Source: a virus (taxonomy: Duplodnaviria; Caudoviricetes). Taken from it: DNA of 64,000 nt. Below the pieces are notes generated by a model. It was not told the DNA's origin. It did not search any database and saw only the letters and a list, made by a program, of their open reading frames with translations. The stretch covers positions 38,437 to 102,436 of IMG/VR virus record IMGVR_UViG_3300035497_000313. The stretch is one strand, 5' to 3'. Positions 4,367-13,941 of the stretch are shown one piece after another. Position 1 is the stretch's first letter. Each line of letters starts with the position of its first letter. Both the position numbers and the translations under genes were made by a program.

Positions 4367-4978
4367 TTAACTATTGGATAATTTATCTTTATAAAATTGT
4401 TTCTTATTCTTGACACTTTGTACTTCCATACTAAATATATTTGCCAATTCACCTTGTGATAATTTATCTACAAATGCTTTAACACAAAAATCTATTTGAC
4501 TATCATTAAAACCTAAAGATTTACATTTATCTACTAATTCTTGTTCTGTACAATTTTTAACGTTGAAAGAAGTTTGTTCTTTATAAAATTCTACTAAATC
4601 ATTATATCTCGGTTCTATATAATCGTAATCTTCTAACTTAGCTTGTACCATACTTGCTTTATAACTTATTAATGCCATAGCTAAACCTAACATACAAGAA
4701 AATAAAATACTTACATATGTATTCATACTAACGGTTATTGCTAAGGCAAATATTACAATAGATAGTACTAAACATTGTTTTAAAGAAGTAGAATGAAATT
4801 GTCCATTATAAAATTCTCTTGTTATAAAATATGGAACAAGTATACAAGCAAGTTGTATTTCTTTATGAATTAATATACTGTATAATATTAATGTTAATAA
4901 AACACAAAAGAATCCCATTAGTCTATATGCAAACAGGATTCTTTTATATTGTTTTTGTGTTACTTTTATTTTTCTCAT
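4367..4978 (-). CDS. AgrB-like membrane peptidase fused to a C-terminal helix-turn-helix
   Basis: Several TM segments; REFYNGQFHSTSLKQC has the AgrB His-x6-Cys spacing; C-terminal LSQGELANIFSMEVQSVKNKK HTH. Confidence 0.6.
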   Translation of the reverse strand: MRKIKVTQKQYKRILFAYRLMGFFCVLLTLILYSILIHKEIQLACILVPYFITREFYNGQFHSTSLKQCLVLSIVIFALAITVSMNTYVSILFSCMLGLAMALISYKASMVQAKLEDYDYIEPRYNDLVEFYKEQTSFNVKNCTEQELVDKCKSLGFNDSQIDFCVKAFVDKLSQGELANIFSMEVQSVKNKKQFYKDKLSNS

Positions 4979-5005
4979 TGTTTTCCTTACTTATCTATCT
5001 ATTTA

Positions 5006-5155
5006 TTACTCGTCTACAATTTCAAATTTCTTTTGTAAATCGTTGTTAGCACTCTTTTCATTACCTAAAAACCATATAGGGCAGCTAGGTGTCCAAGTAT
5101 CGTTTTTTACTTCTTTAGGTCTTTTTGTAATATCAATCTTTTTTGATTTTTCCAT
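5006..5155 (-). CDS. AgrD-like propeptide (49 aa, not in the ORF track)
   Basis: GGAGG SD; MEKSKKIDITKRPKEVKNDTWTPSCPIWFLGNEKSANNDLQKKFEIVDE with a central C-P-I-W-F; lies directly upstream of the AgrB-like gene. Confidence 0.55.
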   Translation of the reverse strand: MEKSKKIDITKRPKEVKNDTWTPSCPIWFLGNEKSANNDLQKKFEIVDE

Positions 5156-9805: not shown

Positions 9806-11293
9806 TTATAATATATTTGTACCGTATATTGCTACAGGAACTATTAAATTGTTTTTTGACGTACCGCCAGAAGTAGAATATTCATAACCACCCCATATGT
9901 ATAATTCCGTAGATGACTTAATAGAAAATTGCCGTGTATACCATGTATTGCCACCTACCCATTGGTCAGATACACACATCATCATAGTTGTATATCCAGC
10001 AGTAGCATAGTTTGTGCCAACTCTAAACTTTTTCTGTAGAATCGTACAGTTTTTAGAACCCCTATCACTATCTAAAATATATTCAATAACCAAATATTTA
10101 AAATCTGCAACAGAATGAGTTAATGATACTGATTGTGCTGAAAATTCATTAAGATTCCCATAATCATTTTTATTACTATTTTCCCAAAGTATACCTGAGT
10201 CGACACCCAAGGTTGTTTTAACACCAGCGACATCAGTTGCTCCTGTACCACCATATTTTATAGGCAAAGTACCGTATACACCAAGTGTTACGTCTTTGGT
10301 TCCATCAAATGTAACTAGAGAAGTACTTGCTAAATTGACTGACATAGCCCTAGGATTATTTAATCTTTCAGATGTGGCAACATACGTTATTTTAACATCT
10401 CCTGTACTACCATTAACTGACGTTACTGTATTTACTTGGGCACCTGAAGCTATACCATCTAATTTTGCTTTATCACTTGCTGACATTAAACCATCTGTTG
10501 ACTGTGAAGCAGTACTGTATGTCGTATCAGTAAGACTAACAGTTGTGTTAGAACTTTGATTTGCTGAAAATGTTGCAACTTGAGTATTATTTTGCTTAAT
10601 TGTTAATGTTCCATTATTAACAGTAGGAATTGTAGGTGTATCATTTAAATCTGAATAACTACCACTCGATGCTACTGTTGCAAGCCCTAAGTTACTACGT
10701 GCCGTTGTAGCATCCGTTGCGCCTGTGCCACCTCGAGTTATAGGCAAAGTACCCGTTACACCGGGTGTTATGTTAATAGAACCGTCAAACGAAGATGCAG
10801 AAGTACTTCCTAAGTCAGTCTGTATAGTTCTGGAATTATATAATTTTGTTGCAGTAGAAGCATTTCCACTTATACTATTTCCCAATGTATTGTTACATTT
10901 AACAGGCACACCATCAGAACTAAAATAAACTGGATAAGTAGAAGAACCAACTGCACTAGATAAATTAAGACTATCTGCTGTAGCAGCAGAACTAATATTA
11001 GTTGCCGTACCTGTAAGTCCTATACTTAATTTCTTAGTACTACTATTTTGAGATAATGTAACAGTCATACCATTTGATTTTGAACTGCCAACATCAATTA
11101 AATCAGTTCCAAGCTTTTTTGCTGTTACTACACCATCTTTAACAGAACTTGCTTCAGTAGCTGTGTCAGCATTACCTTTTAACGACCCAGTTATTGTTCC
11201 CCCTACCTCTAAATTATTTGCAATATAAGCATCGCCATCTGTTTTATTATCAGTATTTAGAACTTGTAATTTTTCTTTACCTGTATAAGACAT
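9806..11293 (-). CDS. tail fibre protein
   Basis: Two GTLPI..GGTGATD repeats, GLMSASDKAKLDGI motif, C-terminal receptor-binding-like domain. Confidence 0.8.
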   Translation of the reverse strand: MSYTGKEKLQVLNTDNKTDGDAYIANNLEVGGTITGSLKGNADTATEASSVKDGVVTAKKLGTDLIDVGSSKSNGMTVTLSQNSSTKKLSIGLTGTATNISSAATADSLNLSSAVGSSTYPVYFSSDGVPVKCNNTLGNSISGNASTATKLYNSRTIQTDLGSTSASSFDGSINITPGVTGTLPITRGGTGATDATTARSNLGLATVASSGSYSDLNDTPTIPTVNNGTLTIKQNNTQVATFSANQSSNTTVSLTDTTYSTASQSTDGLMSASDKAKLDGIASGAQVNTVTSVNGSTGDVKITYVATSERLNNPRAMSVNLASTSLVTFDGTKDVTLGVYGTLPIKYGGTGATDVAGVKTTLGVDSGILWENSNKNDYGNLNEFSAQSVSLTHSVADFKYLVIEYILDSDRGSKNCTILQKKFRVGTNYATAGYTTMMMCVSDQWVGGNTWYTRQFSIKSSTELYIWGGYEYSTSGGTSKNNLIVPVAIYGTNIL

Positions 11294-11367
11294 TGTTTTT
11301 ATCTTCCTTTATGTTTTTTCTACATTATAACACAATACCTTTCATTCTGTCTAATTTCATTCTAAAT

Positions 11368-11401
11368 AAAAAGTAGTTATAAATAATTATAACTACTTTT
11401 T
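11368..11401 (-). terminator. intrinsic terminator closing the pentamer array
   Basis: AAAAAGTAGTTATA-loop-TATAACTACTTTTT followed by a U-rich tail. Confidence 0.7.
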
Positions 11402-11413
11402 ACCTTGTTATTT

Positions 11414-12090
11414 CGTTCAATGCCTATACGTTACAAAAATTAACTACACAATTCCAATACTATTCCGCACTTCACTCTGCGCTTCCTTTACGTAACCGAA
11501 CGAAACTAAACGTCACATTTCCTTAACAATACCGTACTCTACTTCACAATACTAAGCCTACACTTATCAAAACCGTACACTACGAAACCTTTACATAACA
11601 TCACGAAGCTGAACATAGCTTTTCCACGGCATTACTCAACGTTGCAATTCCTTAACTGCGCAATTCATATCCATTACGATACTTAACTTGACAATTCCAA
11701 TACAGAGCCAAACTAAACTTTACAGTTCCAACGCTTTTTGATACATCACTCTACATTTCCATTACCTTACGACACTTTACTCAGCTTAGCCATTACCAAA
11801 CTAAAACATACATTACCATTACTATACAATACGGCACTCGTCTTGACCATTACTTTACTGGACTTTACTTCGCATTTCTTTTACCATACATCTCCGAACG
11901 TAGCTTTCACAATACATAGCGTTTTATTACAGTACTGTACCGTTCCTATACTGGACTAAACTCAACATTACCTTTACTTGGCTGTTCCATACTATTCCGT
12001 ACCGCTACTTTACGATACTTCCCTTCACAACACCGCACCGTTGCTAGCCACAACGTAACTTAACAGGACCGCCCAGCACAAAGCCTTTGC
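11414..12090 (-). repeat. non-coding pentamer/hexamer array (candidate guide RNA)
   Basis: About 110 pentamers, all but 4 starting with G (mostly GT/GC/GA + NNN), in 22 blocks each opened by a hexamer (consensus GTAAWG); no minus-strand ORF. Confidence 0.9.
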
Positions 12091-12091
12091 A

Positions 12092-12724
12092 TTATTTATC
12101 GTCTTTATTACCACCTACGGTATTACCATTTTCGTCTAATAATTCATATCGGAAGGACCCCTTTCCAGAGTTACGCCATTGTAAGAAACCATTATACCTA
12201 CCATAATTAAGCCACTCTTTTACAAGTTCTTCAAGTGTATCATCTAATATTGTAATTCCAAATGTACAAGTAGAACCAGCATTTATTTCTTCACTTATTG
12301 CAATACTTATTCTTTCACCTTGCATTGTTTGTGCTCTTAATGGTCTTTGACATTCTGTAATTTCTGTAATATTTTCAATTTTATTTTTTCTATCGTCAAT
12401 AAATACACATAAGTCTATTACTTTCTTATATGCTTTAATTGCTTTTGACTTACTACCTGTTGCCATTCTCATTGCACTACAAGCTGACTTAAAGAAACCT
12501 TTAATTTGATAATCATAAATAAAAGGTGTACCATCTTCTAACTTAGGAAACCAAGTCTTTCCTTTTTCTACTACTTCGTCTACACCTACAGAAGCTACTT
12601 CATCTTCAATAGTGTTTGCATCGGGTGACTTACTTCCTATAAAGGAACGATAAATATCTTTATCACCTGTTTGTGTTCCTAAAACTGATTGTGTAAATGT
12701 GATTTTTACTTTTAAATTTTTCAT
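12092..12724 (-). CDS. stand-alone Cas7/RAMP-like protein
   Basis: N-terminal strand + LG; PFIYDYQIKGFFKSA (RAMP P.I.g..lKG..r); C-terminal glycine-rich loop GFLQWRNSGKGSF; AGGAG SD. Confidence 0.75.
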   Translation of the reverse strand: MKNLKVKITFTQSVLGTQTGDKDIYRSFIGSKSPDANTIEDEVASVGVDEVVEKGKTWFPKLEDGTPFIYDYQIKGFFKSACSAMRMATGSKSKAIKAYKKVIDLCVFIDDRKNKIENITEITECQRPLRAQTMQGERISIAISEEINAGSTCTFGITILDDTLEELVKEWLNYGRYNGFLQWRNSGKGSFRYELLDENGNTVGGNKDDK

Positions 12725-13020
12725 AAATATTTTCTCCTGTTAGTTTAATTTTCTATTTTTAACCTGTTACGGTTATTTCTAATGTTTGTATTTGTTCTGC
12801 TAAATTTAAATGGTCTACTTCCCACTCAGTAAATGGTAAAACTTTTATATCTAGTACATTGTATTTATCTATTTCTTCATTAAATAAAAGTTCTGGAATA
12901 AATCTTCCGAAAAAGATAGTTTCACCTGTATCTGTTACAATGTCTAGTTCTGTTTCATAATGTACAAAAGTTAATAACATTCTTAACGATAATATATTTG
13001 TCATTCTTTACCTCTACATC

Positions 13021-13506: not shown

Positions 13507-13941
13507 TTATTTTATACCTGAATCACTACAACCACAAACAAATTCATCTGATGAATAATGTCTAAATACCATATTTTCATCTTCTATCATATGTGGTTGT
13601 TTAAGCCATTCTATTTCTTTTTGTAGAGCTTCATCTCTACTACAATTTTTGCCTGAAAAATCTCCATACCAAAAATCAAATGGAGCAATCCAATTCTTAT
13701 GTATTCTTGTTTTAGCATAATCTTCGATTGACAAATTTTTAAACCATTCAAAATTAGTTGTATCGTTTTTATGCTGTTCTAAATAATTATCAACTACCTT
13801 ATGAAAAGTTAATTCAACTTGCTTACAATCTGTAACAGTAAATTCAATATTTAATCTTTGTATTGTACCTTCTATACAAAGTTGATTAAAATCAAATTCT
13901 ATTGTTGCTGTAAAACCTTTATAATATAATTTATTATCCAT
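13507..13941 (-). CDS. HicB-like N-terminal domain protein
   Basis: YKGFTATIEFD...IEGTI...FHKVVDNYLE. Confidence 0.4.
   Translation of the reverse strand: MDNKLYYKGFTATIEFDFNQLCIEGTIQRLNIEFTVTDCKQVELTFHKVVDNYLEQHKNDTTNFEWFKNLSIEDYAKTRIHKNWIAPFDFWYGDFSGKNCSRDEALQKEIEWLKQPHMIEDENMVFRHYSSDEFVCGCSDSGIK

Follow-up and report, generated by a model that had tools for sequence, protein, structure and literature searches.

A lone RAMP gene with a single-G pentamer array in a gut Clostridia phage genome, probably a VIPR system of staggered layout

The window analyzed here is a 64-kb stretch of DNA, which makes up the right part of a 102-kb IMG/VR virus record with a GC content of 30%. It very likely carries a VIPR system of a gut Clostridia phage. 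The minus-strand gene at 12092–12724 encodes a 210-aa single-domain RAMP (Cas7-like) protein, and the minus-strand tract at 11425–12091 is parsed into 129 G-phased units in approximately 21 blocks. The format is probably that of a single-G (YNNNG) repeat in a staggered array. The locus is a further example of a published kind of system, and what is new is limited to the large uncharacterized gut clade to which it belongs and to the reading rule of that clade. A preliminary description made from the letters alone had proposed a candidate non-CRISPR RNA-guided system and had pointed to a likeness to VIPR with a constant part of only GY. The kind of system and the likeness both hold, and the published YNNNG and NNNNG repeats and staggered arrays accommodate the shorter constant part; the locus does not stand as a new system, since it is placed within published VIPR.

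VIPR (Viral Interference Programmable Repeat) was described by one group in two preprints of April 2026 (bioRxiv 10.64898/2026.04.26.720920 and 10.64898/2026.04.26.720927). A phage-borne ancestral RAMP protein (Vipr) is combined there with vrRNAs composed of GGY/NN pentamers, and one Vipr protomer is bound per repeat with the GGY clamped. The NN bases pair with double-stranded DNA while every third target base is skipped (1-nt skip), and competing phages and satellites are silenced (both preprints). VIPR loci are recognized by a small (approximately 20 kDa) single-RRM Vipr with thumb and G-loop, a position outside CRISPR-cas loci and mostly in viruses or proviruses, vrRNAs that are expressed and copurify with Vipr, and, beside vipr, a vap accessory gene. 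The first of the two preprints reports seven types and 667 loci (bioRxiv 10.64898/2026.04.26.720920). Repeats of the form NNNGG, YNNNG, or NNNNG are listed for some types in its Methods section on VIPR type classification, and "staggered" vrRNA arrays are named in its text and in the legend of Figure S18. Noncanonical WGT/NN and TGH/NN arrays beside Vipr-like folds were reported in October 2026 (bioRxiv 10.64898/2026.10.21.760802). Published type II guides contain 9–16 repeats, which specify 18–32 nt, followed by a conserved structured 3′ tail. For the variant repeats, the main texts of the VIPR papers state neither how they are read nor how long the guides are or what they target. A history that runs from VIPR to CRISPR has been proposed.

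The vipr-like gene comes last in a leftward operon that consists of small early genes. An 81-aa ORF without a family match (12759–13004, minus strand) is found 34 nt upstream on the same strand. On the other side of the gene, the array is followed by a short nonperiodic spacer (11400–11424, minus strand), in which the G phasing of the parse is lost, and by a putative intrinsic terminator (11364–11399, minus strand) with a 13-bp A/U-rich stem, a 4-nt loop, and a U tract. The RNA fold of the minus strand from 11370 to 11700 places this hairpin and its U tract at 11370–11399, approximately 25 nt past the end of the array, as had been anticipated when the array was said to end at a terminator. The hairpin was missed by a consensus terminator scan because the stem contains too few G–C pairs. 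It is taken to close the operon that holds the vipr-like gene and the array. A strong promoter-like site for a tail-fibre gene comes after the hairpin, and tail-fibre genes adjoin the locus. No strong promoter-like match was found inside the array (the best was 9/12 on the array strand). The array starts one base past the TAA stop codon of the ORF at 12092–12724 and, given this position and the lack of a strong internal promoter-like match, is most likely the 3′ UTR of the vipr mRNA.

The prior claim that no CRISPR repeat or cas gene adjoins the locus was upheld. No CRISPR-like direct repeats were detected in the 64-kb window, no Cas1 was found in the 102-kb genome record, and the six neighboring ORFs gave no defense-family, Pfam, or cas-family match. 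No gene for a nuclease, a helicase, or an effector partner (Cas10, Cas14) adjoins the vipr-like gene. The array contains no Rfam family or ribozyme, and hence no hammerhead spacers. No conserved vap partner is found beside the vipr-like gene, and vap1 is absent. The 81-aa ORF has no homolog beside the vipr genes of relatives and was a singleton when the upstream ORFs were clustered. A small XRE-type HTH gene is located upstream of the vipr-like gene in 35 of 85 viral relatives and is absent in the window.

The array was parsed by dynamic programming along the 667 nt of the minus strand from 12091 to 11425. The parse provided 129 units, composed of 108 pentamers and 21 hexamers. A G is the first base in 125 of these units, and the remaining four are AAAAC at 11925, TGTAT at 11812, AAAAA at 11739, and TTTTT at 11439. 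The preliminary description had read the minus strand, one base past the stop codon, as about 110 G-initiated pentamers with four exceptions, and this reading proved correct in all details that can be counted. The parse score is 100 for the array, compared with 0.2 ± 5.3 (maximum of 16.5) in 300 shuffles; 186 further segments of 667 nt, taken from both strands of the window, score −20 or less. The autocorrelation of G, which had been suggested as a check for period 5, takes values of 0.49, 0.37, and 0.27 at lags 5, 10, and 15. The array is the sole tract of this kind in the 102-kb genome record; it was not detected by TRF. C makes up 10% of the array strand, and the G bias is strand-specific.

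At the second base, the 129 units have 82 T, 20 A, 18 C, and 9 G, so that a pyrimidine occupies this position in 78% of the window units, and bases 3–5 are free. The G phase shifts by +1 at intervals of about 30 nt, and the mean period is 5.17 nt. The approximately 21 blocks each consist of one hexamer followed by 2–10 pentamers of the form GNNNN, most often 4–6, and most blocks are 26–36 nt in length. The hexamer is GGNNNN in 18 of the 21 cases. Block ends are often GTAWW and block starts are often GGAAWT, with no tail between the blocks. When the repeat is read one base earlier, it becomes W-G-T-N-N in this AT-rich window.

The structure of the 210-aa protein was predicted using AF2 with a 32-sequence alignment, which provided a model with a pLDDT of 80.8. 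On this model the protein is a single-domain Cas7/Csm3-like RAMP fold, as had been expected from its glycine-rich loop. The top Foldseek matches in the PDB, with E-values of approximately 1e-7, are type VII Cas7 (9j9e, 8z4j, 8yhe) and the Csm3 subunits of numerous type III-A complexes, and 183 matches were obtained at E ≤ 1e-3. With the HMM of the broad family, type VII Cas7 (1.8e-6) and Csm4 (1.4e-3) were matched through the half of the protein that extends from the thumb to the G-loop. The thumb is a long β-hairpin at approximately residues 122–147 with invariant R127 and R130, and the G-rich loop is G179..Q182-W183-R184-N185..G189. Searches of Pfam, PHROGs, PADLOC, and NCBIfam gave only subthreshold Cas6/Csm4 matches, including a weak match to Cas6d. 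The nearest structure in BFVD is that of a 56%-identical phage protein, which was named "Cas system-associated RAMP superfamily protein" by its depositors. Clustering at 90% leaves 3725 proteins in the family, and at 50% identity with E ≤ 1e-3 there are 1978 clusters. At least 562 relatives were confirmed in a scan of IMG/VR. The MAGs that carry the family are mostly from gut Oscillospiraceae, Ruminococcaceae, Lachnospiraceae, and other Clostridia.

The protein was compared with the Vipr of Escherichia phage SUSP1. The SUSP1 genome (NC_028808) contains a 195-aa ORF (L013:28474-29061) flanked by long intergenic regions. A 97%-identical relative of this ORF (P0123) matches the PDB chain 36pp_D, "SUSP1 Vipr protein", at 1.2e-127 and bears H17, K33, R138, and D177-W178-R179, numbered as in the structure paper. 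In the SUSP1 structure of the VIPR preprints, W178 stacks on G2, R179 holds Y3, and G1 is read by H17 and D177. The hhalign comparison of the broad family profile (A3) with the SUSP1 family (A2) gave a probability of 74% and an E-value of 2.7e-5 over 183 columns, which is the full length; with a narrower family profile the G-loop alone aligns. In the search with the family HMM, the SUSP1 Vipr chain 36pp was not reached at E ≤ 10, and type VII Cas7 scores higher. The sequence similarity is remote, and since the family HMM misses 36pp, membership in the Vipr clade, as against another RAMP lineage, is argued from the 74% hhalign probability together with the architecture. In the AF2 models, strands and helices succeed one another in an identical order in the window protein and the SUSP1-type Vipr. 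This order is β1, a two-helix insertion, a β-strand, RRM helix 1, a short helix, two strands, and the thumb hairpin, followed by a strand, helix 2, the G-loop, and the last strand.

The G-loops are aligned by hhalign as GlgQWRNsGxGrF for the window family and GlgDWRPr-FGRF for the SUSP1 family. The Trp and Arg of this loop are invariant or nearly so in the window family, and a nearly invariant Gln (Gln182) replaces D177. H17 falls in a 5-residue loop that is missing from the window family in the same alignment. These changes are the pattern expected if the clade had stopped reading G1, in which case GGYNN would become N-G-Y-N-N, that is, "YNNNG"; the alignment from which this is drawn is of modest confidence. 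The loss of the two G1-reading residues and the loss of G1 from the repeat would together represent a simple case of protein–RNA covariation.

The nearest solved sequences and folds of the window protein are those of RNA-targeting Cas7 proteins, namely type VII Cas7 at 1.8e-6 with the family HMM and Csm3 by Foldseek, and these score above the SUSP1 Vipr that the HMM did not reach. Such a ranking would be expected if the locus encoded a RAMP–guide system directed at RNA, in which a Cas7-like filament binds complementary transcripts, in the manner of the Cas7 backbones of types III and VII, and blocks or marks them. This alternative is considered improbable. Neither Cas10, Cas14, nor a nuclease is found nearby; the pentamer register and the clamped G match the DNA-binding mechanism solved for SUSP1; and the full-length hhalign match to the Vipr family has an E-value of 2.7e-5. 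The assignment of the locus to VIPR, with DNA as the probable target, is retained in what follows.

The linkage of gene and array was measured as the period-5 power of G beside the gene in 85 viral relatives with protein identities of 49–85%. The array is located directly downstream of the gene in 83 of these and upstream in one, and the signal is marginal in one. Among 80 loci of relatives from MAGs, the array is downstream in 63 and upstream on the same strand in approximately 10. The linkage spans very different phages and GC contents. Adjacent periodic arrays beside homologs had been named beforehand as something to look for, and 84 of the 85 viral relatives and most of the MAG loci possess them.

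The content of the arrays varies greatly between relatives. In relatives with 84–85% identical proteins, the DNA is 75% identical through the gene, and the alignment stops at the stop codon. No DNA similarity is detectable between the arrays of these relatives, and the same grammar and G register are kept, so that the variable positions are diversified between related phages as the preliminary description had anticipated. The identical protein was found in contigs from four other samples and is accompanied there by an identical array. When the 4617 pentamers of 73 distinct arrays were pooled, position 1 is G at a frequency of 0.97, positions 3–5 are free, and position 2 is C at.53, A at.23, T at.12, and G at.12. 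The constant G of the GY proposed earlier is borne out, and the Y was overstated, a pyrimidine being present in 65% of the pentamers family-wide. Of the 873 pooled hexamers, 92% start with GG, and the blocks most often contain 5–7 units.

Individual blocks reappear with little change in the arrays of other phages, at other positions and among other neighbors. The blocks are therefore regarded as modules, and in this respect they behave much like the spacers of CRISPR arrays. In homologous blocks, position 5 differs at a frequency of 0.084, compared with 0.043–0.056 at positions 2–4, or about twice as often.

The dinucleotide statistics of the variable positions were used to examine the reading rule. 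In an array-stratified comparison with the DNA of the phages themselves, the pairs 3–4 (r 0.67) and 4–next 3 (r 0.65/0.57) carry the dinucleotide bias of neighboring bases. The pairs 4–5 and 5–next 3 do not have this bias (r 0.26 and −0.2; array-stratified). These statistics and the divergence of position 5 weakly favor a two-base reading at positions 3–4. The over-dispersion of base use among blocks is marginal. The test for avoidance of stop codons in positions 3–5 was without power and gave no result. With two bases per unit, a block of 5–7 units specifies 10–14 nt, which is far below the published 18–32 nt. Since both G1 readers are lost and the guides are too short for a specific two-base reading, a different rule may apply. 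The clade could in that event read by a rule other than the published xNN, with three bases per protomer or with cooperative blocks, and sit nearer than the characterized Viprs to the Cas7 of types VII and III as an intermediate in the proposed VIPR-to-CRISPR history; this suggestion is speculative and rather unlikely.

Targets were sought under gapped and contiguous models, as had been proposed in the preliminary description, and none was obtained. Under 10 gapped models, the 20 blocks of the window had as many mismatches at their best sites in the 102-kb record of the phage itself as random blocks had. No target was found for 597 unique blocks from 80 arrays in 1.4 Mb of the relatives' flanks, using 24 gapped models and 12-nt seeds, or when this search was repeated with 15–20-nt seeds and with the contiguous whole-pentamer model. 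The flank search gave an excess at period 5 alone, which came entirely from unmasked array copies. Seeds that span the block junctions gave no target. Exact scans of IMG/VR with the 10-unit block of the window and with the 12-unit block of a relative (L015), each as xNN and as contiguous NN, gave no target, nor did scans with the window blocks at 11522 and 11625 as contiguous NNN 21-mers. A 7-unit block searched as xNN gave more than 118 chance matches, and the best of these, in L205, is without support from other blocks. The block at 11522, as contiguous NNN with two or fewer mismatches, has 0 matches in 401 Clostridia genomes, compared with 2 for the reversed control. These searches, eight IMG/VR scans among them, could detect a block only where it matched exactly or nearly so over its whole length, and they sampled a small part of gut phage diversity; for these two reasons the null results are not counted against a guide function.

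The failure to obtain a target under any model and the shortness of the blocks are the two observations that could be explained if the array RNA were a scaffold or decoy that is coated by the protein. The role of the RNA would then be structural or sequestering, and the variable bases would drift. Simple drift would not lead one to expect what is found across phages, where blocks are kept nearly intact amid differing neighbors. Positions 3–4 also carry the dinucleotide statistics of natural DNA, and the published relatives are programmable guides. A scaffold or decoy is accordingly regarded as quite improbable. A scarcely credible alternative is that the tract acts as DNA, in the form of a phased-G bent or protein-wrapping element between the early and tail-fibre genes with incidental RAMP adjacency, since two units at a period of 5.17 nt span approximately 10.3 bp, near the helical repeat. 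Against this, gene and tract share a strand in most MAG relatives and in 84 of 85 viral relatives, which vary widely in phage background and GC content; the G bias is strand-specific with C at 10%; and for SUSP1 an array of this architecture has been proven to act as RNA.

For the favored assignment to VIPR, the following mechanism is proposed. The vipr-like gene and the array in its 3′ UTR are probably cotranscribed from the upstream early operon, and the transcript would end at the hairpin at 11370–11399. Vipr protomers would polymerize along the array RNA with one protomer per pentamer. The thumb and Trp183 of the G-loop are predicted to clamp the invariant G, which would be the counterpart of G2 in GGY, and Arg184 would clamp the pyrimidine-biased base that follows as the counterpart of Y3. 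From the missing G1 readers (the absent H17 loop and the replacement of D177 by Gln182), the former G1 position would therefore be a free base, pentamer position 5, by which GGY/NN would turn into "YNNNG". Positions 3–4, and perhaps a third base, would be displayed for noncontiguous pairing with double-stranded DNA. The extra G after every 5–7 pentamers would shift the register and divide the array into approximately 21 independent guide blocks, and the GG junction suggests itself as a possible mark of processing or nucleation. The likely output is that competing phages or prophages are bound and their transcription silenced, as has been shown for SUSP1. Silencing by binding is the most likely output because no nuclease or helicase adjoins the gene.

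So far, experiments on VIPR have been made with two type II systems, whose GGY/NN guides contain 9–16 repeats, and the locus described here belongs to a much larger uncharacterized clade of phages of Clostridia in the human and animal gut. Learning how such short and sparsely marked guides locate DNA would show if a single rule or several underlie the noncontiguous code, where the lower size limit of a programmable DNA binder lies, and what gut phages silence in one another.

The window locus was compared with the class 1 CRISPR-Cas effectors, the SUSP1 system, and the variant VIPR types. The Cas7 backbones of class 1 effectors polymerize along the guide RNA with a fixed step. The Cas7 proteins of type VII (8yhd/9j9e) and type III-A Csm3 (6ifn/6xn3) share the RRM core, the thumb, and the glycine-rich loop with the window protein and are its best matches in fold and sequence among solved structures. 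The step of Cas7 is 6 nt without base specificity, whereas the step in the window is predicted to be 5 nt with a sequence-specific clamped base. The guide of the window is written in the repeat itself, in contrast to the spacers of CRISPR, and no partner cas genes are near. The locus has the Cas7 RAMP fold of the class 1 CRISPR-Cas effectors, but no direct-repeat array was found in the window and no partner cas genes beside the gene.

The SUSP1 and window systems are both phage-borne and combine a protein of similar size (195 aa for SUSP1 Vipr and 210 aa for the window protein) with a pentamer-phased guide RNA by the gene and no nuclease. SUSP1 has four separate vrRNAs, each with 12–14 copies of GGYNN followed by an invariant tail of approximately 40 nt. 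In the window the repeat has one fixed G, there is no tail, and one additional G separates each block from the next; vap1 of SUSP1 is lacking, and of the G1 readers H17 is absent and D177 is changed. The array thus departs from the canonical GGY/NN repeat and from the type II guide format of 9–16 repeats with a structured 3′ tail, its guides being blocks of 3–10 units, most often 5–7, approximately 21 in number, within the 3′ UTR of the gene. The "YNNNG" and WGT/NN alternatives both fit. The YNNNG and NNNNG variants of VIPR likewise consist of a lone small RAMP gene in a phage without cas genes and an adjacent intergenic 5-nt array with one fixed G and a pyrimidine-biased next base. The likeness of the window locus to the YNNNG variants is drawn from their text descriptions and carries no assignment to one of the seven types. 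In the staggered VIPR arrays, as in the window, the guides abut with a one-base offset in register.

In 35 of the 85 viral relatives (loci L002, L017, L032, and 32 others), the RAMP gene is directly preceded by a gene for an XRE-type helix-turn-helix protein of 64–75 aa. The gap between this gene and the vipr-like gene is 15–24 nt in most carriers. The upstream gene is a candidate accessory gene of the vipr-like clade, akin to vap. The XRE-type gene is absent from the window. A 144-aa ORF is found on the minus strand of the window at 13507–13941, and residues 1–59 of its product match the PHROG HicB-like antitoxin family with an E-value of 3.9e-7.

A near-consensus sigma-70-type promoter (TAGACA, 18 nt, TG-TATAAT; 11/12 match) appears on the minus strand at 11324–11353, directly past the array terminator and upstream of the 495-aa tail-fibre gene at 9806–11293. 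This places the array where an early operon meets a late one.

A minority of relatives carry the G-phased array 5' of the gene and in the same orientation, rather than downstream (L003, MT835477.1; L218, L228, L251, L263, L269, L270, and L291). Two copies of the vipr-like gene, approximately 48 kb apart, are carried on a single Oscillospiraceae MAG contig, JAGCAN010000001.1, at loci L276 and L278 (22454–29074 and 70347–76967, respectively; one copy each).

Some blocks in the relatives' arrays are made up of internal 10-nt tandem duplications (L001, positions 4965–5030; L031, L057, L077, L084, and L088), as illustrated by GCAGA GAACC repeated four times and GCAAG GCATA repeated four to five times. 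If blocks were read with period 3, the target counterpart of such a block would be a tandem repeat of 6 bp. Another possibility is that the duplications show how blocks grow.

The family HMM built from the broad alignment A3 was compared with the PDB. The Cas7 of type VII CRISPR (8yhd/21bh) was reached with an E-value of 1.8e-6, and the solved SUSP1 Vipr chain (36pp) was not reached at E ≤ 10. In sequence, the vipr-like clade may lie closer than type II Vipr does to CRISPR Cas7.
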